Numbered from the stretch's first letter, positions 497-22,028 are shown. The stretch: DNA of 42,223 bases from Candidatus Woesearchaeota archaeon (GCA_047603125.1 JBLKOU010000005.1:1-42223); one strand, 5' to 3'. A program made the numbers and translations. The notes: a model not told the origin generated them from the letters alone.

Positions 497-997
497 ATGA
501 AAACTTATATAATGGTAGATATTGAAGCAAATGGCCCAATACCTGGAGATTATTCTATGACTTCCTTAGGAGCGGTAATAGTAGATGAAAAATTAGATAA
601 AACTTTTAAAATAAATATAAAGCCAATCTCTGAAAAATTTGATCAAAATAGGAGACAGTTTGTAGATGAAAAAGATGCAGTGGATGCAAAAGAAGCGATG
701 CAGAAATTTAAGGATTGGATTATAAAAAATTCTTCAGGAAAGCCAGTTTTTATTTCAGATAATAACGGTTTTGATTGGATGTTTGTATGCTGGTACTTTT
801 GGCATTTTTTAGAAGAGAATCCACTAGGATATAATTCTCAAAATTTGAATTCTTTAAACAAGGGATTAAATAAGGATTTGAAGGCGAAAATGGATCTATT
901 AAGAGAAAGAGATCTTACCCATGATGCTTTAGAAGATGCTAAAGATAATGCAAGGATATTTTTCGAACTAAAAAAGGAACATTTCAAAGAGATTTAA
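497..997 (+). CDS. DEDDh 3'-5' exonuclease (Rv2179c/RNase AS-like)
   Basis: Motifs VDIEANGP (ExoI), NNGFDW (ExoII) and HDALEDA (ExoIII); GGAGGT Shine-Dalgarno upstream. Confidence 0.85.
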   Translation: MKTYIMVDIEANGPIPGDYSMTSLGAVIVDEKLDKTFKINIKPISEKFDQNRRQFVDEKDAVDAKEAMQKFKDWIIKNSSGKPVFISDNNGFDWMFVCWYFWHFLEENPLGYNSQNLNSLNKGLNKDLKAKMDLLRERDLTHDALEDAKDNARIFFELKKEHFKEI

Positions 998-1006
998 ATA
1001 CAATTT

Positions 1007-1080
1007 CTTCTTTTTAGAAAAAAGAAGCAAAAAGACGGAAATCCCCATTTTCTTTTTTACAAAAAAAAGAAACAAAAAAA
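1007..1080. repeat. Two tandem A/T-stem hairpins (CTTCTTTTT-AGA-AAAAAGAAG and TTTCTTTTTT-AC-AAAAAAAAGAAA), terminator- or REP-like
   Basis: Two similar palindromes, each followed by CAAAAA, directly after the exonuclease stop codon. Confidence 0.45.
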
Positions 1081-1216
1081 GCGCGCGTCTCTCTAATACA
1101 TAGCCCACCCAAAAAAATATTATTTCTAAATTTATAAAACGGCATTCTCAAAAACTTTGATTTTTTGCCTTCGGCATCGTTGCGCTAAAAATCAAGTCCT
1201 CCAAGTATTCGGACGA

Positions 1217-1310
1217 AACTAACAGGGCTTAAAGGGTTCACTCACCTTGCAGGTTCGCTCTCCCAAATTTTTTGCTACGCAAAAAACTTCCCTTAAGCCC
1301 GATGTTAAAT
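1217..1310 (+). mobile_element. Integron attC-like recombination site 1
   Basis: R'' AACTAAC (1217-1223), spacer AGGGC, L'' TTAAAGGG, hairpin-rich centre, L' CCCTTAA, spacer GCCCGAT, R' GTTAAAT (1304-1310, fits GTTRRRY). L'' has one extra unpaired base relative to L'. Near-identical to 7410-7499. Confidence 0.7.
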
Positions 1311-1314
1311 CCAA

Positions 1315-1430
1315 TAAAATTTCCATTTCTTTTTTTTAGTTTTGGGGAGTTCCGGTGCTACGCACATATTCACTCACTTCGTTCGATATTTATTAGTAGA
1401 AGGGGGAGTTCTTTAACTTAAGGGGAGTTC
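1315..1430 (+). repeat. Left end motif set: 15-bp TAAAATTTCCATTTC plus three GGGGAGTTC boxes
   Basis: 15-mer at 1315-1329 and boxes at 1344, 1403 and 1422; inverted counterpart at 7192-7358. Confidence 0.8.
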
Positions 1431-1553
1431 CTTAGTCCTGTCGGACATCTACACTCGCAACTTCGTTGCTCGAAAATTTATTACTTTTTCTAAATTAAAT
1501 ATACTAAATTAAAAGAAAAGTATATAAATTAAATTAAATCTAGAAATATTAAA

Positions 1554-2351
1554 ATGAATAAAGCGTTATTACATCCTCAAACAGTTTTATTATGTGTAAA
1601 AAAAATTAAAAACCCTCATCTTTTTTTATTAGACTCACTTAATTTAATGAAAAAACCATATACACTGAAATTTAAAGATGGTTATAGTCTTAAAGTAAGA
1701 CCTAAAAATAATAAAAGAGTAGGAGATATTCACGTAATTAAAGATATTATATTATATAATCAATATGAATTAAAATCAATTCCTTCAAAAGGTGTGGTTA
1801 TAGACGTTGGTGCACAAATTGGTTGCTTTTCTGTACCTGTAGCTACAAATACTGATTGCTTAATTATTTCTATTGAACCTGAAAAAACGAATTATGAACA
1901 ACTTAAAAAAAATAAAACATTAAATAAATTAAAAAATATAAAAAGTTATAATGTCGCATTAACAAAAGAAAAAGGTTTTTCTTATTTCTACATATCTCAG
2001 GAAAATAGTGCAGGCCATTCACTGTTTCAGGATGATAAAAAACAAAAATACAAAGTTAAAACATTATCTCTTAAAGATATTATAGATGAAAACAAAATAA
2101 AAAAAATACAATATTTAAAATTAGATTGTGAGGGAGGAGAATATGATATTTTATTAAACTTATCAAAAAAATATCTAGATAAAATTAAAACCATATATTT
2201 AGAACAACACCACACGCCAGACATATTAAATAAATATGCCGAGGAATCCATCACAAATTATTTGGAAAAAAACGGGTTCAATCGAAAACTTATTGATAAA
2301 TTTTATTTTAAAGATGAAGGCACTTTTTACATTTTTAAATTTGAGAAATAA
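1554..2351 (+). CDS. FkbM-family SAM-dependent methyltransferase
   Basis: Motifs VIDVGAQIG, SIEP and LKLDCEGGEYDIL; TATATAAA box at 1521. Confidence 0.9.
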   Translation: MNKALLHPQTVLLCVKKIKNPHLFLLDSLNLMKKPYTLKFKDGYSLKVRPKNNKRVGDIHVIKDIILYNQYELKSIPSKGVVIDVGAQIGCFSVPVATNTDCLIISIEPEKTNYEQLKKNKTLNKLKNIKSYNVALTKEKGFSYFYISQENSAGHSLFQDDKKQKYKVKTLSLKDIIDENKIKKIQYLKLDCEGGEYDILLNLSKKYLDKIKTIYLEQHHTPDILNKYAEESITNYLEKNGFNRKLIDKFYFKDEGTFYIFKFEK

Positions 2352-2433
2352 CCATATTGAATTATAACCCTTCGGAATTTTTCCAAGTTTTAAACATGAA
2401 CATTTATAAACTTATTAAAAATTGTATATTAAA

Positions 2434-3186
2434 ATGCATGAAAAAAATTTATTGAATGAGTGCCCCATAAGATATGGCATCTTATTCGATTTGTTTAGAA
2501 GAAGCACAAATGAAGAAGAACTAATCATCGATAAAATTCTAGAAAAAATTAAACTTAAGAAACATAGAAATTCGTTATTAGATATTGGAGCAAGCGATGG
2601 AAATTTAATTCAGAAAATTATGAAATTTTTTAATAATACTTACGCCATAGAAAAAAGAGACGACTCTACATTATTTTTGGATTCTTTAGGAATAGATGTT
2701 TTAGAGAACATTTGGGAAGATTATAAAGGAAGGAAAAAATTTGATTTTATTCTTGCATCTCATGTATTTTATTATTTTCCGACATCTGATTGGAAAATGC
2801 ATCTTTTAAAAATGATGAAATTACTAAATAAAGAAGGTATCTTAATAGTTATTACAAATAGTATTGAAAGCGAATATACTGATTTTCTAAGAACATTTTA
2901 TCATAAAATATTAGGTGAAAAATTCATTTTAGAATCAATATTCACATACGCTGATAACTCAAATAAAGATTTTAAAGTGACAAAAGAAAGAATTTCAACA
3001 GATATTTTTTTGGAAAATAAAACCCATTTTTTATCAATGTGTGAATTCTGGCTAGGTTCAAGTAAAGAAAATTGGGGGGAGATTCATGAAGAAATTAGTG
3101 ATTACTATACCACTTTAAAAAATAGAAGTCCGCAAGGTAAAACGATTAAGTTAGACTTGGATGTTCTATGTATAGTCAGGAGATAA
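2434..3186 (+). CDS. Class I SAM-dependent methyltransferase
   Basis: Motif I LLDIGASDG, FDFILASHVFYY and LNKEGIL; ATG at 2434 follows a TTTATAAA box at 2403. Confidence 0.85.
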   Translation: MHEKNLLNECPIRYGILFDLFRRSTNEEELIIDKILEKIKLKKHRNSLLDIGASDGNLIQKIMKFFNNTYAIEKRDDSTLFLDSLGIDVLENIWEDYKGRKKFDFILASHVFYYFPTSDWKMHLLKMMKLLNKEGILIVITNSIESEYTDFLRTFYHKILGEKFILESIFTYADNSNKDFKVTKERISTDIFLENKTHFLSMCEFWLGSSKENWGEIHEEISDYYTTLKNRSPQGKTIKLDLDVLCIVRR

Positions 3187-3189
3187 ATT

Positions 3190-4041
3190 ATGAAATTATC
3201 AATAATAATACGCGTTAAAGATGACTTGAGGGTTGCGAGATGTTTAGATAGCATTGATGAAGATGTTGAAGTAGTTGTTGTTCTAAACACCCCTTCTAAA
3301 GAAGTCATAGAACTACTTAAGAAATATAATGTAGTAACAACAAAAATAAATAACAATAATTTAGCTAAAGCACATAATAGAGGAATAGAAGTGAGCAAAT
3401 ATGAATTTGTTTTATTAATGGATTCTGATTGTGTTTTCAAGAAAGGAACGATCAACAAACTTTATCAAGGGCTAAAAAGTGCAGATTTATCTAAAGGTCG
3501 AGTACTATTTAATCATTCTAGTTTTATTAGTAAAACAATTGCATTATCTAGAGAATATCATGTTACTGATATTGAAAATGCATATTCACCACCACTGGCT
3601 TTTAAAAAGGGGATTGATAAATATATAGGAAAATATTATTTTGATGAAGATATATTTTGGACCGAGGATCACGAATTTGATCAACGTGTTAAAAAAGCAA
3701 AATTAAAAATAAATTACAATAAAAAAGCAATAATCTATCATGATGAATTGTCTATAACTTCTGATTTGCGTAGTGCTCACAATTATGGGAGTGGATATTT
3801 TGAAGGAATAAAAAAAGGGGCCATTAAAGGTTGTTTTTTATATGGAGGTAATAAAAAGATATTACTTGCAGTAGGGTTAGATTTTATAAGATTATTGTGC
3901 TTGCCTTTCTTCTTTTTGTCCGTATTAATAAAGAAAAATATTTTTGTAGCATCGTATATGATTATTTGGATGGTTGTATTTAATTTAGGATATTATAGAC
4001 AAATGATGTTTAATCATTTGAATGTAGGTGGGAAAAAATGA
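3190..4041 (+). CDS. Glycosyltransferase family 2 (GT-A) with a C-terminal hydrophobic segment
   Basis: Motifs LSIII, AHNRGI, the DxD motif MDSD and TEDHEF. Confidence 0.85.
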   Translation: MKLSIIIRVKDDLRVARCLDSIDEDVEVVVVLNTPSKEVIELLKKYNVVTTKINNNNLAKAHNRGIEVSKYEFVLLMDSDCVFKKGTINKLYQGLKSADLSKGRVLFNHSSFISKTIALSREYHVTDIENAYSPPLAFKKGIDKYIGKYYFDEDIFWTEDHEFDQRVKKAKLKINYNKKAIIYHDELSITSDLRSAHNYGSGYFEGIKKGAIKGCFLYGGNKKILLAVGLDFIRLLCLPFFFLSVLIKKNIFVASYMIIWMVVFNLGYYRQMMFNHLNVGGKK

Positions 4042-4655
4042 AAAAGATTGTTGTAATTGCACCTCACCCTGATGATGAAATTATTGGTTGTGGGGGTCTG
4101 ATACTAAAAGCAAAAAATGCAGGATATGATTTAGATTTTGTTTACTTTATGACTCCTGAGAAAGAACGATTAAAAGAAATTAATAAAGTAAAGGAAAAAT
4201 TAAATGTAAAAAATATATGTTTAATTAATGCTGGGAAAGGACGAAGTTTCGTATTTAATAAACTAGAAAAAGAAAAACTCTTAGAAGTGCTTTCTCAACC
4301 AATAGATATTCTATTAATTCCTCATATAAACGAATCAGATCAAGATCATTCATTTGTTAATAAAGCTGTTAAAGATTGTTTAATTCTTAGACAAAATAAC
4401 AATCCCTTAAATTTAATATTAGGTTATGAAGTTTGGTCTCCAATAAAAGAACCAACAATACTTGTCAATATAGATGAAGTCTTTGAAGAAAAATTAGAAC
4501 TTATGCAAGCATACAAATCTCAAATAAAGAACCATAATTATATAAATATGATTAGAGGTCTCTCGCAATATAGAGGCTCTTTAAAAGGAAAAAAAGTAAA
4601 TCATGCAGAAGCATATCTTATTTATTACGAAAATAAAGGAGGAATATTTAAATGA
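4038..4655 (+). CDS. PIG-L/LmbE-family N-deacetylase
   Basis: APHPDDE metal motif, DQDH, YEVW and YKSQ; overlaps GT2 stop (ATGA). Confidence 0.9.
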   Translation: MKKIVVIAPHPDDEIIGCGGLILKAKNAGYDLDFVYFMTPEKERLKEINKVKEKLNVKNICLINAGKGRSFVFNKLEKEKLLEVLSQPIDILLIPHINESDQDHSFVNKAVKDCLILRQNNNPLNLILGYEVWSPIKEPTILVNIDEVFEEKLELMQAYKSQIKNHNYINMIRGLSQYRGSLKGKKVNHAEAYLIYYENKGGIFK

Positions 4656-6364
4656 GAATTTTGGGAATTTCAGGATGGAAGAATTTAAAAAAATATTTTC
4701 CAAATACCGATGCATTGCCTTTACACGATGCCTCAGCAGCCCTAATAGTAGATGATGAAATTATTGCTGTAGGCGAAGAAGAAAGATTTACAAGAAAAAA
4801 ACATGGGTATGATACCTTTCCTGTTAATGCAGCCGCTTTTTGTTTAAAAGAGGCAAAACTTACATTAGATGATATAGATAAAATAGCCATATATTGGGAT
4901 TTTCCGTATCATGCAAAAATTAAGGGTGAAAAGTGGACAACAAAAAATGAAGAGTTAGTAGAAAGAATATTTCCTAAAAATTTATTTCCGAGAAATAAAA
5001 ATGTGGAAGTCGTATTTGTTAATCACCACCTAAGTCACGCTGTTAGTGCTTGGTCTTGTTCTAGCTTTAATGAGTCTATTGTTATAGTTGTTGATGGACA
5101 AGGTGAGGATGCATCTACAAGTGTTTGGGTTGCTAAAGAAAATAAATTATCTTTATTGAGAAAAAGTAAGAGTTCAGCATCATTAGGTTTTTTTTATGAA
5201 GCATTGACAGAATTCGTGGGTTTAGAAGCAAATGAACCTGGAAAAACTATGGGCTTAGCATCCTTTGGTAAACCTATATACGACTTAAAAAAGTATTTTA
5301 AAATTGATGATGGAGTTATTAATTTAACTATAGACCCAGAAATAGATGAAAAGTCAGATTTCGATGAACAAAAACAAGTACGAAAATATTGGAAAAATAT
5401 TTTTAGTTCAATAATCAATAAAGAAAATGTAAATACGACAGAGTTCAATAAACTGTCATCACATTTCGATAAAAATGTTGAATTTAATGAAGAATATAAA
5501 AACCTTGCAGCTTCAGGACAGGAAGCACTAGAAAAAGTCATGCTTAAATTGGTTGAATGGACTGTTAAAAATACAGGAATAAAAAACTTGTGCTTGGCAG
5601 GAGGAGTGTCTTTAAATTGTGTTATGAATGGTAAAATTTTACAAAGTGGTTTAATAAAAGATGTTTTTATACAACCAATGGCCCATGATGCTGGTGCAGC
5701 ATTAGGTGCAGCTCAAGCATGTAACGATAAAAAAATAAGTAATTTTCAAGGAATATATTTAGGCCCTGAATTTTCGGAAGAAGAAATAATTAGTGAGCTA
5801 CAAAGGAATAAAGTCACATATAAAAAATCAAATAATGTTTGTTTAGAAGTGGCTAAACTATTAAATAAAGGCAACATAATAGGTTGGTTTCAAGGAAAAA
5901 TGGAAGTTGGTCCAAGAGCATTGGGCAATAGAAGTATTTTAGCCAATCCTATTTTATCTAATGCAAAAGATTTAGTTAATAAACATGTTAAATTTCGTGA
6001 AATGTGGAGACCCTTTGCACCATCTTTATTAGAAGAAGATGTGGATATCTATCTCGTTAATGCACATAAGTCCCCTTATATGATTCTTAATTTTGAAGTT
6101 AAAAAAGAAGCTTTAAAAAAAATTCCTGGAGTTTTACATATAGATAACACTGTTCGACCTCATACCGTTACTGAAGCTCAAAATAAAAAATATTATGAGC
6201 TCATAAAAGAATTTAAGAACATTACAGGAGTAGGTGTAATTTTAAACACATCATTTAATGTAAAAGGAGAACCGATTGTTTGTACGCCCAGAGACGCATT
6301 AAGAACTTTTTATTCATGTGGTATGGACTATTTAATACTGGGAGATTTTATTATAGCTAAATAA
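4652..6364 (+). CDS. O-carbamoyltransferase, NodU/CmcH/TobZ family
   Basis: Motifs HDASAAL, EEERFTRKK, HHLSHA, DGQGE, GKTMGLA, AGGVSLN, GPRALGNRSIL, RPFAPS and NTSFN. Confidence 0.95.
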   Translation: MRILGISGWKNLKKYFPNTDALPLHDASAALIVDDEIIAVGEEERFTRKKHGYDTFPVNAAAFCLKEAKLTLDDIDKIAIYWDFPYHAKIKGEKWTTKNEELVERIFPKNLFPRNKNVEVVFVNHHLSHAVSAWSCSSFNESIVIVVDGQGEDASTSVWVAKENKLSLLRKSKSSASLGFFYEALTEFVGLEANEPGKTMGLASFGKPIYDLKKYFKIDDGVINLTIDPEIDEKSDFDEQKQVRKYWKNIFSSIINKENVNTTEFNKLSSHFDKNVEFNEEYKNLAASGQEALEKVMLKLVEWTVKNTGIKNLCLAGGVSLNCVMNGKILQSGLIKDVFIQPMAHDAGAALGAAQACNDKKISNFQGIYLGPEFSEEEIISELQRNKVTYKKSNNVCLEVAKLLNKGNIIGWFQGKMEVGPRALGNRSILANPILSNAKDLVNKHVKFREMWRPFAPSLLEEDVDIYLVNAHKSPYMILNFEVKKEALKKIPGVLHIDNTVRPHTVTEAQNKKYYELIKEFKNITGVGVILNTSFNVKGEPIVCTPRDALRTFYSCGMDYLILGDFIIAK

Positions 6365-7110
6365 TTTTTTATAAATAAAACGAGTTTAGCAAAGTTTTCA
6401 TTTGACAAACTTAATATTGATTTATTTTGGATATCATCAGGAATTTTTAGGTTTTCAACGATTAATGCTGCTTCTCTTTTGGTTTTATTTTCCATATTTA
6501 TAATCGTATTTCTTAATCCGTTTTTTAACTTTTTATCTTTTTGTAATAATAACTCCTTCATGATTTTATCGAATTTTTTTAAAAATTCTTGATCTTTTTT
6601 TATAAATGATAAAATTACTGAATTTACGCGGGGTTTCGGTTCAAATGAAGTAGGAGATACGGTTTTAATTTTTTTTATTTCAAAAAAAGAATTCAACATA
6701 ACATATAATTTTTTTTCTTTCTTCAAGATTTTCCAAAAATTTTCTCCAACCAATAATATCATTAATTCTATATCTTCTCTTAAAACTTTTTTCATTAATG
6801 GTTCAGATATATGGTACGGTATGTTAGCAATTATTTTGTTAAATCGTAATTTATCAATTATTTTTATTATATCTTTATTTATTACTTCAATATTATGATC
6901 AATTCTTTCTAACAAAGGTATAAGATCTGCATCTAGTTCTACTGTAATTAGTTTTTTACATTTGTTAGATAATTTTTTTGTTAAAATACCTTTACCCGGA
7001 CCTATTTCTAACACTATATCTTTTTTAGTTATTCTTGAGTTTTTTATTATGGTCTCTAACACCACATTATCAATAAGAAAATGTTGTCCCAAATTGGATT
7101 TATCTCTCAT
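6328..7110 (-). CDS. rsmA: KsgA/Dim1/Erm-family rRNA adenine N6-dimethyltransferase
   Basis: Motifs LGQHFLID, VLEIGPGKGILT, ANIPYHIS and FEPKPRVNS; converges on and overlaps the carbamoyltransferase 3' end. Confidence 0.85.
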   Translation of the reverse strand: MRDKSNLGQHFLIDNVVLETIIKNSRITKKDIVLEIGPGKGILTKKLSNKCKKLITVELDADLIPLLERIDHNIEVINKDIIKIIDKLRFNKIIANIPYHISEPLMKKVLREDIELMILLVGENFWKILKKEKKLYVMLNSFFEIKKIKTVSPTSFEPKPRVNSVILSFIKKDQEFLKKFDKIMKELLLQKDKKLKNGLRNTIINMENKTKREAALIVENLKIPDDIQNKSILSLSNENFAKLVLFIKNYLAIIKSPSIK

Positions 7111-7191
7111 TATTTATTAATATTACTGTGCCATTTATATAATTTTTGAAACAAATAGATTGGACAGATATTTGTTCGCTTGTATTGAACG

Positions 7192-7358
7192 GAACTCCCC
7201 CTTGATGTATTGACTTGATGAGCCTTCGGCTTTGATAAAAAAGAACTCCCCTCGATAATTGTTCTCTATGGCACTTCGTGCTTTGAGGGAACGGAACTCC
7301 CCAGTCCTTCGGACATATTGGCTCCCTATGGTTGAATTTATTGGAAATGGAAATTTTA
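7192..7358 (-). repeat. Right end motif set: three GAACTCCCC boxes at a 51-bp period plus 15-bp GAAATGGAAATTTTA
   Basis: Boxes at 7192, 7243 and 7294; the 15-mer at 7344-7358 is the exact reverse complement of 1315-1329. Confidence 0.8.
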
Positions 7359-7409
7359 CTCTGCGGACGCAGGTTTTCCGAACTCCACTTCGTTCGTAAC
7401 GGAAAACGT

Positions 7410-7499
7410 ATTTAACAGGGCTTAAAGGGTTCGCTCGTTGCACTTCGCTCTCCCAAATTTTTTGCAAGCAAAAAACTTCCCTTAAGCCCGATGTTAAAT
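7410..7499 (+). mobile_element. Integron attC-like recombination site 2
   Basis: R'' ATTTAAC (7410-7416, fits RYYYAAC), AGGGC, TTAAAGGG ... CCCTTAA, GCCCGAT, R' GTTAAAT (7493-7499); direct repeat of site 1 differing mainly in the central hairpins. Confidence 0.75.
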
Positions 7500-7659
7500 G
7501 AAATAATTTTTAGTGGCTAAAAGCAGAAGGGGGAAATCAAAAAAAGAAATGATACATATTTGAAAAACAAAAGTTATGAGATATGTTAAAATTAAATCAG
7601 TTTTTAAGCTAAAATATAAAAAATTGATTTTTAGCAGTTTAAGTATTAAAAATAAACTT

Positions 7660-8847
7660 TTAATCTTTAAAATCGTCGACAATTGTTCTAAAAACTTCTA
7701 TTGTTTCATAATCATTTTCATCAAAATAATAATCAGTACTTGTTTTAACTATTATAAAATTATTTAGTGGGTCTATGTATATATATTGTCCCCACACACC
7801 TATTGCTGTATAATCTCCATGACTATTTTCAGGAATCCACCATTTATATCCATATCCGAAAGTCCAATCACTTTGTGGATTATCTCCTGGTTGAAGTCTA
7901 CTTTCATTTCTATTTATACTCTCATGAATCCAATTTTCAGGAACAATATCCAGACCATCATTTAAATACATAAACCCGAATCTAGCATAATCTCTAGAAA
8001 TAGCATTAAGACAACAAAATCCTATAGCTTTATTATTTCTTTCAGTACTCCAATAAGCATCACTTTCCATGCCCAAAGGCTGCCAGATTTTTTCTTCAAG
8101 CAATTTAGGTAAAGTTTTATTACTGACTTCTTCTAATACATAACCTAGAACGAGGGTATCGGAGCTTATATAATTATTATACGTTCCTTGTTCTGTAAAG
8201 AAATCAAGTTCTTTTGTATATTTGAGCATTGACTTGTTTAGACCCATACTCATAGGAAATATCATATTAATGTCACTAGTAAAATCTTCATAGTCTTCAT
8301 TGAATTTAATTCCACTACTCATTGTTAACAAATTTCTTATTGTTACATTTCCATAAGGAGTTCCCTTATATTCTTTAACATATTTTTTAACCGGGTCATC
8401 TAAATTATTAATTAGTCCTTCTTCGTAAAGAATTCCAGTCATAGCAGATACAAAACTTTTAGCAACGCTCCAACTTGTTATTTTATCAGTTTGTGAATAA
8501 TTTTGATAATATTCTTCAAATAAAATAGTATCATTTTGTAATACAATGAGAGAAGTAGTTTCAGTCCTATTTAGGAAATCATTTAAAATCAGTTCTTCAT
8601 CTTCAAAAAAATATATCTCGGGAAGATCTATTTTGTTATATCGAAAATCAAGATCTTCGGAGCCTTTATAAATTTGTTCATAAGGAAATATAGAGTTCAT
8701 GTTTTTAAAATTGTCAGCTCTATGTCCGTCAGCAAATAAAGTAAACATAACACTCCAAGGGCTATTTATCATCCAAATAGCTAATACAGAAAACAAAATA
8801 ATTATTAAGACAAGTATAGTCAAAAATACTTTATATTTACGTTTCAT
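7660..8847 (-). CDS. Serine hydrolase of the beta-lactamase class C/NylB-like family, N-terminally membrane anchored
   Basis: SxxK motif SVAK, LLTMSSG, YISSDT and GYGYKWW; N-terminal transmembrane helix. Confidence 0.9.
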   Translation of the reverse strand: MKRKYKVFLTILVLIIILFSVLAIWMINSPWSVMFTLFADGHRADNFKNMNSIFPYEQIYKGSEDLDFRYNKIDLPEIYFFEDEELILNDFLNRTETTSLIVLQNDTILFEEYYQNYSQTDKITSWSVAKSFVSAMTGILYEEGLINNLDDPVKKYVKEYKGTPYGNVTIRNLLTMSSGIKFNEDYEDFTSDINMIFPMSMGLNKSMLKYTKELDFFTEQGTYNNYISSDTLVLGYVLEEVSNKTLPKLLEEKIWQPLGMESDAYWSTERNNKAIGFCCLNAISRDYARFGFMYLNDGLDIVPENWIHESINRNESRLQPGDNPQSDWTFGYGYKWWIPENSHGDYTAIGVWGQYIYIDPLNNFIIVKTSTDYYFDENDYETIEVFRTIVDDFKD

Positions 8848-9844: not shown

Positions 9845-9990
9845 ACAGTATAAAAAAATTAAAATATAAACATAATCGTCTCCCTCGATTCTTGTTCTTG
9901 ATGCACTAAGAAATCAAAGATATCTTGTGTCCAAAAAATGTACAATTTCTGAGGATATCACATTTACTCCTTAGATAGAACGCCTCTCAA

Positions 9991-10626: not shown

Positions 10627-10755
10627 ATGAAATACAACCCAAAGAAAATTAAGATCTATTCAGAAAACAATGAATTTCAACATGCTGAAGTTCTAAAGAG
10701 AAATAGAGTTAAGCCCTCAAAAATAAAATATTTATATATATGGTCGCTTATATAG
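10627..10755 (+). pseudogene. N-terminal fragment resembling a TrmH/SpoU RNA methyltransferase
   Basis: MKYNPKKIKIYSENNEFQHAEVLKRNRVK resembles, from recall, the N-terminus of a SpoU subfamily. The reading then runs into the TA promoter and stops after 42 aa. Confidence 0.45.
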
Positions 10756-10760
10756 TTATT

Positions 10761-10982
10761 ATGGGCCAAACAACAATCTCAGTAAATCACGAATTACTTA
10801 CCAAACTAAAAGAGAGAATGATGTATGATAGAGAATCATATGAAGAAATAATTTGGGGCGCTTTAGAGGACTCCATGGAATTATCTGAAGAAACTAAAAA
10901 AAGAATCAAAATAGCTGAAGAGGATATTAAAACAGGTAGAGTTTATTCTCTTGAAAATGTTAAAAAGGAATTAGGAATATAA
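10761..10982 (+). CDS. Archaeal RelB-like antitoxin
   Basis: TTISV beta-strand start, ESYEEII and the C-terminal EEDIKTGRVYSLENVKKELGI; lies directly upstream of a RelE remnant; TTTATATA box at 10731. Confidence 0.8.
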   Translation: MGQTTISVNHELLTKLKERMMYDRESYEEIIWGALEDSMELSEETKKRIKIAEEDIKTGRVYSLENVKKELGI

Positions 10983-10983
10983 A

Positions 10984-11230
10984 ATGTTTGATCTTTTTTT
11001 ACAGCCGAATCTAAGAAATTCCTAAAGAAACTTAATGAAAAGATTCTAAAAGAATTATTTCTACATTAGAAAGATGTAGAATCGGACCACATTCTTATGT
11101 TAAAAAATTAATTTCTTCTCCATATTTCAGATTACGTGTTAGAGATTATCGAGTAATTCTGGATATTAAAGCAGGTAAACTTTTAATTATTGTTGTTGAT
11201 ATAGGTCATAGAAAAAACACTTACAAATAG
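10984..11230 (+). pseudogene. relE: RelE/ParE-family toxin with two frameshifts
   Basis: Adding one T to the T7 run at 10994-11000 and one A at ~11038-11041 restores MFDLFFTAESKKFLKKLNEKDSKRIISTLERCRIGPHSYVKKLISSPYFRLRVRDYRVILDIKAGKLLIIVVDIGHRKNTYK. Confidence 0.8.
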
Positions 11231-11297
11231 TGAGCTTAAAATAAAACTTAGCTGAGATTTTTTTGCTTCTCAAAAAACCGCTTGCAGTTATCCCTCG

Positions 11298-11330
11298 GTC
11301 ACTTCGTGACGCCACTAACAAGGATTTGCC
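11298..11330 (+). mobile_element. Left half of an attC-like site at the island/core boundary
   Basis: Hairpin GTCACTTCGTGAC, then CACTAAC-AAGGA-TTTGCC, with no complementary right half downstream. Confidence 0.4.
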
Positions 11331-11487
11331 ACTTTTGTAGTTACGCGAGATGATTTTTTGTGAAAACCAAACTCTTTAGACTGAAAATACTGAAAAACTA
11401 ATCGATTTTTGAACAAGTGAAACTAATTTTAACCAACAACTAACTTTATTAAGGATGAATTCTCAAAATTACCAAAAGAGGTGCAAA

Positions 11488-18928: not shown

Positions 18929-18976
18929 ACACAACATATTGTATTACAAGAGTTTGCAAAATACAAGATGGCGGGC
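18929..18976 (+). promoter_or_regulatory. Tandem NrdR boxes upstream of nrdD
   Basis: ACACAACATATTGTAT (18929-18944) fits acaCwAtATaTwGtgt; a weaker ATACAAGATGGCGGGC starts 32 bp later (18961). Confidence 0.7.
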
Positions 18977-19022
18977 AGTTTCTGAGTTCTTCAACAACTG
19001 CTTTTTAAAAAAGGTGAATATT

Positions 19023-22000
19023 ATGGTAAAATTGGTGCATACAAAAACAGAAAGCATTGACACATCGATACTCGATGATTATTTAGATCAACAGGACTGG
19101 CGGGTTAAAGAAAATAGTAATGTCAGTTATTCGTTTTCTGGTTTAATGCTCCATGCAGCCGGTAATATTATTGCCAAATATACGCTCATGCATTACCCGA
19201 ATGAAATTGCGACAGCACATAAAAATGCAGATTTGCATATTCATGACTTATCGATGGGCATTGCAGGGTATTGTGCAGGATGGTCTCTCAAGCAATTATT
19301 ATTAGAAGGGTTTAATGGGGTTGCAGGAAAAACATCGTCTCTGCCGCCAAAACACCTCTCGACAGCATTGGGTCAAATGGTAAATTTTTTAGGAACATTA
19401 CAAAATGAATGGGCGGGGGCTATGGCCTTCTCTTCTTTTGACACGTATTTAGCGCCATTTGTGCGAGCAGATGAGCTTTCTTATGATCAAGTAAAGCAAG
19501 CAGTCCAATCCTTTGTCTATGGGCTTAATATTAGCTCTCGCTGGGGCGGACAGTGTGTGAGTGAAGATACGCAATGTTTGACTGATTCAGGATGGAAGCA
19601 TTATAATGATATTAATCTAAAAAAAGATTTGATTGCGACATTTAACATAGAGACAGGTGTTATAGAATATTTAAAACCAAGTCGAGTAAAATCGTATGAT
19701 TATAAGGGAAAATTAGTGAGATTATCAAATCGTTCTCAGGATCAATTAGTTACACCAAATCACAAAGTTGTACGAAAAGTACATAATTCAGATTCATATG
19801 TCTTAGAGGAGGCACAAGATTTATTTCAATACAAGTCCCCCATCATTATTCCAAATTCTGGTTTTACACAATCTAAAAAAGAAATTGAAGACGAATGGGT
19901 CATGTTATTTGCGTGGCTTGTAAGTGAAGGAACATTTTCTGAGGATAGAGAGCGTGTGTCCATATTTCAATCAACAAAGAATAAAGCAAAATTGGAACAA
20001 ATACGTTTGATTTCAAAAAAACTTGGTTTGCGCTGGGATGAACAATCCCGAGTACATGGCTTTGGAACCGAACCTCTTGTTCGATTGCGTTTCGGGGCAG
20101 AATCTTCCCGCACGATTCGAAAAAAAATTTCTTCAAAAAAGATTCCAGCTATTGTAAAAACACTAAGTGCACGCCAAATTAAATTATTCATTGACACTTA
20201 TGTCTTAGGAGATGGTTCTATTGAAAAAAGTGGAAGAATGCGTATTTATACAAAAGATATTGATGTATTAAATGATTTGCAAGAATTATGCTCGCTCTGT
20301 CTTTATGGAAGTACGGTTTATCGCAGGACTAATGGAGTATATGTATTAAACATTATTCGAAATAACCACACATATGTGAAACTATCGTATGAAAAATATG
20401 TAGGAAAAGTATGGTGTCCAACGACAAAAAATGGTACGTTTATTGCTCGTCGTAATGGGAAAGTTTTTGTGACGGGTAATACGCCCTTTACAAATGTTAC
20501 ACTTGACTGGACGGTTCCTGAAGATATGAAGCAAGAACCAGTCATTTTGGGCGGAAAATATCAAAAGGAAACATATGGTCAATATCAAACAGAAATGGAT
20601 ATGATTAACCGCGCATTTTTAGAAGTTATGATTGAAGGAGATATGGATGGACGGATTTTTACATTTCCAATTCCAACATACAACATTACAAAAGAATTTG
20701 ATTGGGATTCACAAAATGCAAATTTATTATTTGAAATGACTGCAAAATATGGAATACCCTATTTTCAAAATTTCATAAACAGTAGTCTCAAGCCAAGTGA
20801 TGTACGAAGTATGTGCTGTCGCTTACAAATGGATTTACGAGAATTAAAAAGTAAAACGGGTGGTTTATTTGGTTCTGGAGAATCAACGGGCTCTATTGGT
20901 GTTGTAACGATAAATCTCCCTCGAATTGGTTTTTTAGCAAAGGATGAAGATGAGTTTTTATTGCGCCTTGGAAAGCTTACCGATTTGGCATATGAGTCAT
21001 TAGAAGTAAAAAGAAAAATGATTACACAGCACCTAGATAGTGGCTTATATCCATACACGAAGCGTTACTTGGGTTCATATGCAAATCATTTTTCAACAAT
21101 TGGAATTAACGGGATGAATGAAGCTGTACTTAACTTACTTGGTTGTACAATAGTCGATCCAAAAGGTCGTGCCTTTGCTCTTAAAGTGCTTGACTTTTTA
21201 CGTGATCGTTTACAATCATATCAAGAAGAATCGGGAAATCTCTATAATTTAGAAGCAACACCTGCAGAAGGTACTGCGTATCGATTCGCACGCCATGATA
21301 AGCGTTTGTACCCTCAAATTATCACTCAAGGAACAATTGAACCGTATTATACAAATTCAACACAATTACCTGTCGATCAGACTGATGATTTATTTGAAGC
21401 GCTGGATTTACAAGACGAACTTCAATGTAAATATACGGGCGGAACAGTCTTTCATGGTTTTTTGGGTGAGAGTATGAGTGATGTGCAAGCATGTAAAAAA
21501 CTTGTCAAACAAATTGCATACTCGTACAAGATGCCGTATTTTACTATTACGCCAACATTTAGTATTTGCCCAGGAACAGGTTTTGAGCCAGGTGAAGTAA
21601 GTCAATGTCCAAAAACACAACAGCCTTGTGATATTTACAGTCGTGTTGTGGGATACTTTCGCCCCGTGCAACAGTGGAATAAAGGAAAGTCTGCCGAATA
21701 CCAAAAACGAAAAGAATATGTTGCTCAGTTAAAAAATGATTCTGCACAAACACATATACAATCCTGGAATGATATTCCTGATCAATGTATTTTATTGACA
21801 TTATCAGGCTGTCCAAGCTGTCCGGGAGCAAAAGATGCCTTGCAAAATCAAAGCTTGGTTCCCCATACTGTTATAGATGCTTCAACACCGCAAGGAAGAG
21901 AAATGGCAAAACTCTACGCAGTTGAAAAAGTTCCAACGGCGATTTTTATGGATGCACAAAAAGAAATTGTTGCAAAAATAAGCGGAACGCAGCAAATTCA

Positions 22001-22028
22001 AGCATATGTTCAAGAGTTATCCAGATGA
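19023..22028 (+). CDS. nrdD: Class III anaerobic ribonucleoside-triphosphate reductase with an intein and a C-terminal redoxin domain
   Basis: Motifs WRVKENSN, HIHDL, YCAGW, TFPIPT, SMCCRL, EATPAE and the glycyl radical loop YSRVVGY; AAGGTGA SD before ATG 19023. Confidence 0.95.
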   Translation: MVKLVHTKTESIDTSILDDYLDQQDWRVKENSNVSYSFSGLMLHAAGNIIAKYTLMHYPNEIATAHKNADLHIHDLSMGIAGYCAGWSLKQLLLEGFNGVAGKTSSLPPKHLSTALGQMVNFLGTLQNEWAGAMAFSSFDTYLAPFVRADELSYDQVKQAVQSFVYGLNISSRWGGQCVSEDTQCLTDSGWKHYNDINLKKDLIATFNIETGVIEYLKPSRVKSYDYKGKLVRLSNRSQDQLVTPNHKVVRKVHNSDSYVLEEAQDLFQYKSPIIIPNSGFTQSKKEIEDEWVMLFAWLVSEGTFSEDRERVSIFQSTKNKAKLEQIRLISKKLGLRWDEQSRVHGFGTEPLVRLRFGAESSRTIRKKISSKKIPAIVKTLSARQIKLFIDTYVLGDGSIEKSGRMRIYTKDIDVLNDLQELCSLCLYGSTVYRRTNGVYVLNIIRNNHTYVKLSYEKYVGKVWCPTTKNGTFIARRNGKVFVTGNTPFTNVTLDWTVPEDMKQEPVILGGKYQKETYGQYQTEMDMINRAFLEVMIEGDMDGRIFTFPIPTYNITKEFDWDSQNANLLFEMTAKYGIPYFQNFINSSLKPSDVRSMCCRLQMDLRELKSKTGGLFGSGESTGSIGVVTINLPRIGFLAKDEDEFLLRLGKLTDLAYESLEVKRKMITQHLDSGLYPYTKRYLGSYANHFSTIGINGMNEAVLNLLGCTIVDPKGRAFALKVLDFLRDRLQSYQEESGNLYNLEATPAEGTAYRFARHDKRLYPQIITQGTIEPYYTNSTQLPVDQTDDLFEALDLQDELQCKYTGGTVFHGFLGESMSDVQACKKLVKQIAYSYKMPYFTITPTFSICPGTGFEPGEVSQCPKTQQPCDIYSRVVGYFRPVQQWNKGKSAEYQKRKEYVAQLKNDSAQTHIQSWNDIPDQCILLTLSGCPSCPGAKDALQNQSLVPHTVIDASTPQGREMAKLYAVEKVPTAIFMDAQKEIVAKISGTQQIQAYVQELSR
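19554..20480 (+). mobile_element. Intein (309 aa) with a LAGLIDADG homing endonuclease in NrdD
   Basis: Insertion at GGQ|CVSEDT ... VTGN|TPF; block B VTPNH; endonuclease motifs LFAWLVSEG and FIDTYVLGDG; block F VWCPTT. Confidence 0.93.

Follow-up and report, generated by a model that had tools for sequence, protein, structure and literature searches.

Here we describe two conserved end modules that bracket a 6-kb gene cassette in Candidatus Woesearchaeota archaeon (GCA_047603125.1 JBLKOU010000005.1:1-42223), a DPANN archaeon with a 1.1-Mb genome. The stretch analysed, called the window throughout, is 42,223 nucleotides (nt) long and is an entire contig (C35) of a host assembly of 70 contigs and 1.116 Mb, for which completeness is rated 100%. 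Our best reading is that the modules are the conserved left (A) and right (B) arms that mark a family of mobile cassettes in DPANN (Woesearchaeota-like) archaea, each with several genes but no recombinase of its own. We put at roughly 55% the probability that they are accessory arms which would flank a recombination site in an excised circle and would there pair, or be bridged, end to end. Five observations carry this reading: the modules recur around unrelated cargo in other genomes, A- and B-ends face each other in pairs, homology begins at a fixed position in a folded site, genes for a XerA-like tyrosine recombinase lie beside A-ends, and the hairpins between the boxes covary and keep a single strand polarity. 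Genomes, contigs and loci other than the window are referred to by G, C and L numbers.

End modules of the cassette

The elements of the two modules, and the sites outside them, are as follows.

1217–1310, plus strand: site 1, an attC/dif-like folded site (AACTAAC ... GTTAAAT) that folds as an imperfect hairpin
1304–1484, plus strand: A-end arm, from GTTAAAT to the inner CGAAAATTTATTAC, which resembles a transcription factor B recognition element (BRE) and TATA box; delimited by an alignment of 22 A-ends
1315–1329, plus strand: 15-mer TAAAATTTCCATTTC of the A-end
1344–1352, plus strand: box A1, GGGGAGTTC, flank CCG
1403–1411, plus strand: box A2, GGGGAGTTC, flank TTT
1422–1430, plus strand: box A3, GGGGAGTTC, flanks AAGG and CC
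7192–7200, minus strand: box B3, GGGGAGTTC
7243–7251, minus strand: box B2, GGGGAGTTC
7294–7302, minus strand: box B1, GGGGAGTTC
7344–7358, minus strand: 15-mer TAAAATTTCCATTTC of the B-end
7361–7407, minus strand: outer part of the B-end, with stem-loops CTGC..GCAG and GTTTTCCG..CGGAAAAC, whose stems covary in relatives, and a partial fourth box, GGAGTTCGG
7410–7499, plus strand: site 2, an attC/dif-like folded site (ATTTAAC ... GTTAAAT), which folds
7500–7548, plus strand: stretch without boxes that follows site 2 and may be the start of a minimal or relic cassette; it ends in GAAGGGGG, similar by eye to the inner-boundary motif AGAAGGGGGCGAGAAAAC of relatives

An earlier, sequence-only reading of the window had proposed an inverted 15-mer, six ordered boxes and a further mirrored element, TCCAATAAA. 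The 15-mer TAAAATTTCCATTTC and its exact reverse complement are indeed where it had placed them, the left copy beginning 4 bp past the GTTAAAT at 1304–1310, and the 1.116-Mb genome holds no other copies. The six GGGGAGTTC boxes are likewise real, compared with 0.07 expected in the window (none of 100 shuffles got to six). Genome-wide there are eight copies, six of them at this locus, and a composition-based estimate of ~2.5 chance copies per genome is in line with the two outside it; the proposed scan for box clusters thus finds the box at background frequency elsewhere. The flanks CCG, TTT and AAGG..CC follow one order at both ends, as had been noted, and the described 51-bp period is exact for the right-hand boxes, the left-hand spacings being 59 and 19 bp. 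We also agree that no target-site duplication is visible at either end. The mirrored TCCAATAAA had to be abandoned: both stated copies exist, yet the genome as a whole contains 41, and the two are out of mirror register, overlapping the outer edge of the left 15-mer yet sitting inside the right one.

The modules recur as facing A- and B-ends around unrelated cargo

The left intergenic pieces are 93–98% identical to genomes from other families of the same order. At E ≤ 1e-5, module DNA (1304–1481) found matches in 43 of the 401 genomes sampled from the order; three of the 43 (G251, G215 and G217) are flagged as unpublished. Identity reached 96% over 178 bp in G050, 94% in G267, 90% in G358 and 89% in G137, all from other families; none of seven genomes of the host's own family matched. 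Many of the matches end at contig ends, as repeats do. The two-box pattern was found in 28 stretches of metagenome contigs, three of them GC-rich chance matches, and had no matches in viral contigs. Scanning genome contigs with the bare 15-mer gave 119 stretches, nearly all of them chance matches in unrelated AT-rich genomes; the G077 contig was among them, as part of a public metagenome-assembled genome.

Sorting of all copies yielded 23 distinct A-ends and 20 distinct B-ends, with two different layouts. A-ends consist of GTTAAAT, four bases, the 15-mer and boxes at about +29, +88 and +108, while B-ends consist of GTTAAAT, ~50 conserved bases, the 15-mer, box 1 at +56 (18 of 20) and then a period of 49–55 bp. 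The left module of the window is an A-end and the right module a B-end. An A-end faces a B-end in 14 clean pairs (the window, G075, G077, G358 and ten metagenome pairs), 2.4–8.1 kb apart, and G212 provides one further probable pair. No A/A or B/B pairs were seen wherever the flank sufficed; three ends (L196, L198 and G198) are partnerless despite at least 7.6 kb of inward flank. Cargo varies among the pairs and includes restriction-modification and other defence genes, ABC transporters, GroES/GroEL with Hsp20, iron–sulphur and NifB-type proteins, an aldehyde dehydrogenase set, helicases and sugar-modifying enzymes. A tyrosine recombinase gene (PF00589) lies inside none of the 14 clean pairs, and one pair (L185) contains a DDE gene of insertion sequence (IS) type. 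The link to a mobilisation system that had been proposed from the window is well supported by modules that bracket unrelated cargo, by homology that starts at GTTAAAT and by A-ends near XerA-like genes.

Conservation within the arms is patterned. In all 22 A-ends aligned, 14 of the 15 positions of the 15-mer are invariant and the remaining one is at least 90% conserved; in all 19 B-ends aligned, box 1 with its flank (GGGGAGTTCCGTTC) is invariant, as are eight of the nine positions of box 2. Mean column identity in the arm alignments is 58–64%, and the spacers diverge. Decayed copies also exist, namely L195, a one-box A-end in G212 and relic pieces in the window at 9876–9905, the latter similar to the inner part of a B-end.

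Two side observations concern these copies. An inverted motif, AGAAGGGGGCGAGAAAAC, lies at the inner edge of both arms in many relatives (for example, L010 15331–15380 and L044 4740–4764); one variant of it is common to both ends in G077, and the motif is absent from both arms of the window. We rejected a 5' leader or ribosome-binding site as its explanation because it lies downstream of a TATA-like box in A-ends and upstream of one in B-ends. Separately, an IS200-type Y1 transposase gene with a terminal hairpin directly follows an otherwise intact A-end in G050 (L011, contig C90, 10459–11130). No B-end is present there in the 4.7 kb up to the contig end, and the arrangement looks like an insertion that cut the cassette; among the loci, an IS200-type TnpA beside an A-end was found in G050 only.

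Boundaries at folded sites and a linked XerA-like recombinase

Sites 1 and 2 (~95 bp) are direct repeats, 83–87% alike, with two occurrences in the genome. Compared with the attC end pattern RYYYAAC ... GTTRRRY, site 2 reads ATTTAAC...GTTAAAT and site 1 AACTAAC...GTTAAAT. Homology among A-ends begins at GTTAAAT regardless of the sequence outside it, which is usually an attC-like hairpin with covarying arms and otherwise a 28–29-bp, dif-sized site or, in several genomes, the region upstream of a tyrosine recombinase gene. B-ends start at GTTAAAT as the complement of a site's other end. As judged from this junction, the crossover at site 1 is probably at or just left of GTTAAAT 1304–1310. Versions of 28–29 bp are found at the B-end of G077 and the A-end of G157; the sites in the window have the same arms plus an insert of ~70 nt. 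Bacterial dif consists of 11-bp arms around a 6-bp spacer, and the right arm of the sites (..GATGTTAAAT) is similar to what we take to be its XerD arm. The sites, which the earlier reading called attC-like, fit a folded XerA/dif type better than a classical integron.

A XerA-like gene is present in five of the 29 non-self ±1.5-kb loci fetched by module DNA (G075, G030, G320, G312 and G251; four of 28 when G251, flagged as unpublished, is left out). It is always divergent from an A-type end and 100–400 bp off. The same divergent arrangement occurs at the A-ends of L185 and L198, and with these included the distances span 100–500 bp; in G198 the gene is 1.7 kb away. Given about one such gene per genome, well under one case of adjacency is estimated by chance. 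The host genome has one PF00589 gene, which is XerA-like and encodes 252 amino acids (aa; contig C18, 10034–10887, locus L009). Contig C18 breaks off 95 bp before the start codon of this gene, on ...AATACTTGTTA, which corresponds to the opening four letters of GTTAAAT. A GTTAAAT and a repeat would be expected to start here, and it is at this point that an A-end follows in relatives.

The XerA-like proteins (252–276 aa) are 37–53% alike. The host protein aligns with archaeal XerA (4a8e) in one stretch, end to end (E 2e-40), residues 6–246 corresponding to XerA residues 17–271. Because alignment with XerA starts at about residue 6, the proteins have no extra N-terminal arm-binding domain. Against IntI4 (2a3v) the alignment breaks into two stretches, with 19 residues where IntI4 has 68, and the same is true of the G075 protein; the XerA-like proteins therefore lack the integron-specific domain. 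From gene position, we consider that a XerA-type recombinase probably recombines the folded sites. The sole fully visible array, on a 1.1-Mb metagenome contig (L203), contains an A/B unit as one of at least five cassettes split by co-oriented ATTTAAC...GTTAAAT sites, and this row of sites begins near a XerA-like gene.

By eye, the XerA-like gene at L010 (G075, contig C2, 15642–16463 onward) is much richer in G+C than the adjacent AT-rich cassette; the locus as a whole has 46% G+C, compared with ~30% in most other loci. Just outside two elements, and pointing toward them, lies a gene for a TrmB-family regulator: L010 7805–8542 (G075, B side) and L052 10797–11540 (G212, A side). These genes were considered as encoding a box binder and set aside, being 34% alike and absent from the remaining loci. 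No conserved candidate binder or regulator gene was found near the modules among the loci.

Hairpins between the boxes covary and keep one strand polarity

Short hairpins occupy the spacers between the boxes of both arms.

1355–1365, plus strand: hairpin H1, GTGC-TAC-GCAC followed by ATAT; reads C-GTA-G on the minus strand
1435–1446, plus strand: hairpin H3, GTCC-TGTC-GGAC
1457–1469, plus strand: hairpin H4, GCAAC-TTC-GTTGC; the stem covaries with TTTTAC/GTAAAA in relatives
7221–7231, minus strand: hairpin AGCC-GAA-GGCT; compensatory AGGC/GCCT swap in L200
7271–7281, minus strand: hairpin GCAC-GAA-GTGC; GCTC-GTAA-GAGC in relatives
7304–7314, minus strand: hairpin GTCC-GAA-GGAC; GTGC-G(A/T)A-GCAC in relatives

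The four stem pairs of H1 (GTGC-NNN-GCAC) and the following ATAT are invariant in all 22 A-ends. Elsewhere, stems change in ways that keep their shape, as in TTTTCCG/CGGAAAA versus TTTTCGG/CCGAAAA. Counted over the A-ends, 20 cells have both sides of a pair changed, compared with 7.8 in shuffles, and none of 500 shuffles was as high; in B-ends the count is 8 compared with 2.2 (again 0 of 500), a value that includes one misaligned helix scored as 24% paired. This covariation indicates that the hairpins are selected as structures.

The loops are also strictly polar. On the minus strand of the window, C-GNA-G or C-GNNA-G loops number 59 in 22 A-ends and 51 in 19 B-ends, with none on the other strand; the copies are homologous, and therefore these 110 hairpins amount to ~7 independent hairpin positions. 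Whereas the two ends carry boxes and 15-mer in opposite orientations, the hairpin loops are not inverted. In the window, seven of the genome's 73 such triloop hairpins fall within 911 bp, all with one polarity. If the sites are read like attC, with ATTTAAC to GTTAAAT on top, the strand that carries these loops is the bottom strand. Triloops of d(GNA) closed by C-G, and mini-hairpins of the GCGNAGC/GCGNNAGC type, are reported to have exceptional stability as DNA (PMC3201870, PMC13037366).

Complementarity of the two arms

The B-end with site 2 was joined to the A-end in a script, as in an excised circle, and the junction was folded. In the predicted fold of either strand, the folded site is enclosed by in-register pairing of the 15-mer copies and of boxes 1-1, 2-2 and 3-3; the minimum free energies are −82 and −85 kcal/mol, and shuffles give −48 and −50. 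Where box 3 varies, the two ends of an element carry the same variant (GAGGGAGTTCC in L184, GGAGGAGTTCC in L202 and GGGGAGTTTTGAA in L193), and truncations of box 3 are common to both ends in L179 and G077. The ends of true pairs agree more closely than those of shuffled pairings, with a permutation p of 0.015 to which box 3 makes the whole contribution and which was obtained on mutually related elements. The complementarity of A and B, the concerted box-3 variants and the one-strand polarity point to strand pairing in folded single-stranded DNA.

Community sequence data

The sequencing runs listed with matching DNA are eight DNA runs from two lake-water studies, with no RNA run among them, and contigs of four runs were compared with the window. 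Summed contig depth was 14–166 over the arms and sites (bins 1131–1592 and 7137–7598) compared with ~2–20 over the cargo in all four runs, an excess that fits many other copies in these communities and is not a copy number. Back-joints were present in contigs from 7432 to 1285 and, with 39 other letters between, from 7433 to 1258, with sides of 31 letters only. The 39 letters are the G075 site variant, and we discarded the back-joints as circular junctions, other attC copies in the community explaining them.

A model for the arms and the alternatives to it

In the model that we favour, each arm lies just inside a folded attC/dif-like site on which the chromosomal XerA-type recombinase would act. 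The cassette would be cut out as a circle, in which B arm, site and A arm would be contiguous. The resulting composite att region, ~500 nt long, would correspond to the core of an attP plus both of its arms. Since the arms lie inside the crossover sites, they would flank the site in the circular form as attP arms do. Since each arm retains the 15-mer and boxes in one order, as inverted counterparts of those in the other arm, the arms could make contact box 1 to 1, 2 to 2 and 3 to 3, whether by base pairing in folded bottom-strand DNA, by bridging through a box-reading protein, or both. The C-GNA-G and C-GNNA-G mini-hairpins of the bottom strand would keep that strand folded, and the arms would help recombination by bringing or holding both ends together on it. 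A bolder version, which we put forward tentatively and hold to be possible rather than probable, is that of a shared operon vehicle of DPANN archaea: the ~200-bp arm pair would make any 2–8-kb block a XerA substrate, zipped as a folded bottom strand, stabilised by C-GNA-G hairpins and read via the iterated GGGGAGTTC boxes.

Several points weigh against this model. An in-register fold is trivial for any inverted repeat and demonstrates a possible geometry only, and when single arms are folded, the gain in stability over shuffles is modest (z = −1.5 and −3.4). The within-element matching concerns box 3, and variants of boxes 1 and 2 are uncompensated between the ends (G358, L179, L189 and L195). 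Three identical 9-mers per arm exceed what a pure pairing device needs and invite mis-register; with the 15-mer likewise invariant, the arms have more the look of protein-binding iterons. XerA is linked to the modules by position only. In the L203 array, the other cassettes have no A/B arms and therefore the arms are not required for recombination as such. The only KsgA/Dim1-family gene of the host genome lies on the cassette, which is odd for a freely mobile unit. Every locus is a metagenome-assembled contig, of a kind that breaks at these repeats, and the analysis turned up neither an excision product nor an empty site, nor any strand-specific intermediate.

The alternative that fares best, which we nonetheless regard as rather unlikely, is that the boxes and 15-mer are binding sites on duplex DNA only, for an accessory protein or for the recombinase, with no strand pairing. 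Its closest models would be the arm-type sites of lambda attP and the ~180-bp cer/psi accessory sequences at Xer sites. Iterated 9-mers and a 15-mer with an internal dyad (AAAT-TTCC-ATTT) are typical of protein sites, the B-end spacing of 49–55 bp is close to five helical turns and would put the boxes on one face of the duplex, and the uncompensated variants of boxes 1 and 2 agree with it. However, no candidate binder was found, the XerA-like proteins lack an extra arm-binding domain, and the TrmB-type genes adjoin the element in two loci only. Duplex binding also leaves unexplained the one-strand GNA/GNNA polarity and the matching of box 3 within elements, both of which pairing of the arms on a folded bottom strand would accommodate.

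The shared operators that the sequence-only reading had offered as an alternative are now disfavoured. On this account the modules would be portable regulatory regions and the boxes operators or upstream activating sites that co-regulate genes at both cassette ends, an account suggested by the window, where both box sets lie upstream of inward-pointing genes, and by the BRE/TATA-like motif CGAAAATTTAT in which A-ends terminate and which many copies conserve. Over the 14 pairs, however, a neighbouring gene points inward at just 14 of 28 ends, the value for random orientation, and the operator reading therefore does not generalise. The first gene from each end of the window's cassette has its own TATA-like box ~30 nt before the start codon, within the cargo and thus not part of the conserved modules; GGGGAGTTC occurs in the rest of the genome at background frequency (two copies), and no conserved regulator gene is nearby. 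We consider regulation an improbable basis for the modules.

Slightly less likely still is a non-autonomous Tn7/Mu-like transposon whose two ends would be the modules, each with several subterminal transposase sites; its transposase would be encoded elsewhere and would prefer attC/dif-like targets. The ends are asymmetric, mutually inverted, carry three repeats each at differing spacing and are conserved across differing cargo, all as such ends would be. But the 14 clean pairs have no common transposase (the IS-type DDE gene in L185 is unrelated), there is no target-site duplication, the outer boundary is the GTTAAAT of complete co-oriented sites rather than a split target, and the linked enzyme is a tyrosine recombinase.

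We give very little credence to the arms as genes for structured non-coding RNAs (guide or regulatory RNAs of the element, say), with the hairpins as RNA hairpins. Covarying stems would fit, and the GUAA loop of one hairpin variant would be a GNRA tetraloop. Against this, no Rfam 15 family was found in 900–7800 at E ≤ 0.1 (at E ≤ 1 there were three microRNA-type chance matches, E 0.19–0.42, none in the arms), the loops are mostly triloops, which are unfavoured in RNA and classic in stable DNA mini-hairpins, and polarity tracks the orientation of the recombination sites, not of the genes. Equally remote are selfish repeats or relics with no present function, alike through recent spread and homologous recombination, which the very high identity between families and the decayed copies would suit, since the boxes, 15-mer and H1 are invariant and other stems compensatory while the spacers diverge, and such patterned conservation argues for selection rather than recency alone.

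Cargo and setting of the cassette

Between its arms, the cassette in the window carries two convergent transcription units.

1554–6364, plus strand: cargo operon of five genes, encoding an FkbM methyltransferase, a methyltransferase, a GT2 glycosyltransferase, a PIG-L-type deacetylase and a NodU/CmcH-type carbamoyltransferase
6328–7110, minus strand: KsgA/Erm-family rRNA adenine dimethyltransferase gene, with a TATA-like box ~29 nt upstream (~7134–7143), converging on the five plus-strand genes

The operon resembles a sugar or glycan tailoring set and, together with the convergent rRNA methyltransferase gene, recalls small antibiotic-tailoring clusters with a self-resistance gene. A PF00398 search of the host genome gave the cassette's gene as the sole clear match, a second match of 18.5 bits being below the cut-off. 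Its protein falls under both curated cut-offs (KsgA, 159 versus 171 bits; Erm, 141 versus 212 bits). Two explanations suggest themselves: a gene that is normally universal has come to lie on a mobile cassette, or a housekeeping copy is missing from the assembly.

G+C is 24–32% in the first ~11 kb of the window compared with 32–40% beyond, so that the left end of the contig (1–11400) forms a low-GC island. The arm relics at 9876–9905 lie inside this island, as does an apparent toxin–antitoxin-like pair near 10750–11230. At ~11240–11340 there is a site-like stretch in which a TTTTTTGC hairpin and ACTAACAAGG accompany a second hairpin, GTCAC-TTC-GTGAC, whose strand polarity matches that of the arms; this stretch is probably the end of the cassette row. 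The right-flank gene (7660–8847) has matches in none of nine other genomes of the host's family, and hence there is no cassette-free homologous site for comparison. Farther along, 18939–22028 (plus strand) encodes the anaerobic ribonucleotide reductase NrdD (1029 aa), which probably contains an intein, given a LAGLIDADG-type domain at residues 414–476. Features encoded by the host genome include a tandem TATA-binding protein and an archaeal small subunit rRNA.

Comparison with known systems

As we understand Tn7 and Mu, their ends share with the modules three subterminal repeats per end, unequal spacing and inversion. The cassettes differ from them in having no shared DDE transposase, no target-site duplication and bounds at sites of tyrosine-recombinase type. 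They also differ from miniature inverted-repeat transposable elements, being units of 2.4–8.1 kb with coding cargo rather than small and non-coding.

Lambda attP and cer/psi, again as generally understood, have ~200 bp of accessory DNA with repeated short sites beside a tyrosine-recombinase core, and this DNA lies on both sides of the core in the circle and at the inner ends when integrated, which is the arrangement proposed here. Unlike the lambda system, the recombinase here has no arm-binding domain and no partner of ArgR, PepA, IHF or Xis type was identified; unlike either, the arms are mutually complementary and carry strand-polar DNA mini-hairpins.

With integrons, the cassettes have in common rows of co-oriented, imperfectly palindromic sites that end in a GTTRRRY-like GTTAAAT between cassettes of accessory genes, a divergent tyrosine recombinase gene at the end of the row in relatives, and a folded bottom strand as the likely substrate. 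The recombinase, however, is XerA-like and lacks the IntI-specific domain (patch III region), the cassettes contain several genes (2.4–8.1 kb) with promoters of their own, and classical attC sites do not have 200-bp arms with iterated boxes. Archaeal integrons and clusters of attC sites lacking integrases (CALINs) have been described by Ghaly et al. 2022 (PMC9668308), whose IntI has the additional domain and most of whose finds are attC clusters with no integrase; the portion of that paper compared here, which excludes its supplements, does not mention accessory arms.

The integrative mobile elements exploiting Xer (IMEX) and the dif modules of Acinetobacter are, according to the parts of their literature available to us, also recombinase-less, bounded by Xer-type sites and apparently moved by the chromosome-resolution recombinase of the host (PMC6449649, PMC13141974, PMC5357621). 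Dif modules, as these sources have it, use inverted 28-bp pdif sites on plasmids, whereas the sites here are direct and mostly have a palindromic insert of ~70 nt. The host here is an archaeon with a single XerA, and conserved, box-bearing accessory arms are undescribed in the same sources. The available portions of papers on archaeal XerA/dif and tyrosine recombinases (PMC2958812, PMC3646895, PMC8371274) print no dif sequence and mention no IMEX, integron-like arrays or DPANN, and a literature search, supplements excluded, for Xer-type cassette arrays in DPANN archaea found none described and returned the archaeal integron paper only.

What is new in comparison with these systems is the combination of arms shared across cassettes and families, iterated boxes and a one-strand polarity of mini-hairpins. 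How genes move among DPANN archaea, with their tiny genomes and their reliance on hosts, is poorly understood; if the model is right, XerA-run cassettes would explain the spread between families, at >90% DNA identity, of defence systems, transporters, chaperonins and cell-surface sugar pathways. The conserved arms provide a searchable signature of such cassettes in metagenomes, and a site with its arms offers a short, defined DNA substrate for archaeal XerA on folded single-stranded DNA. Because an enzyme of Xer type is linked here with attC-like folded sites and accessory DNA, the system bears on the origin of integron-type single-strand recombination from Xer systems. On the bolder version of the model, accessory arms would be known for the first time from an integron-like system, and the DNA mini-hairpin would have a natural role in recombination.

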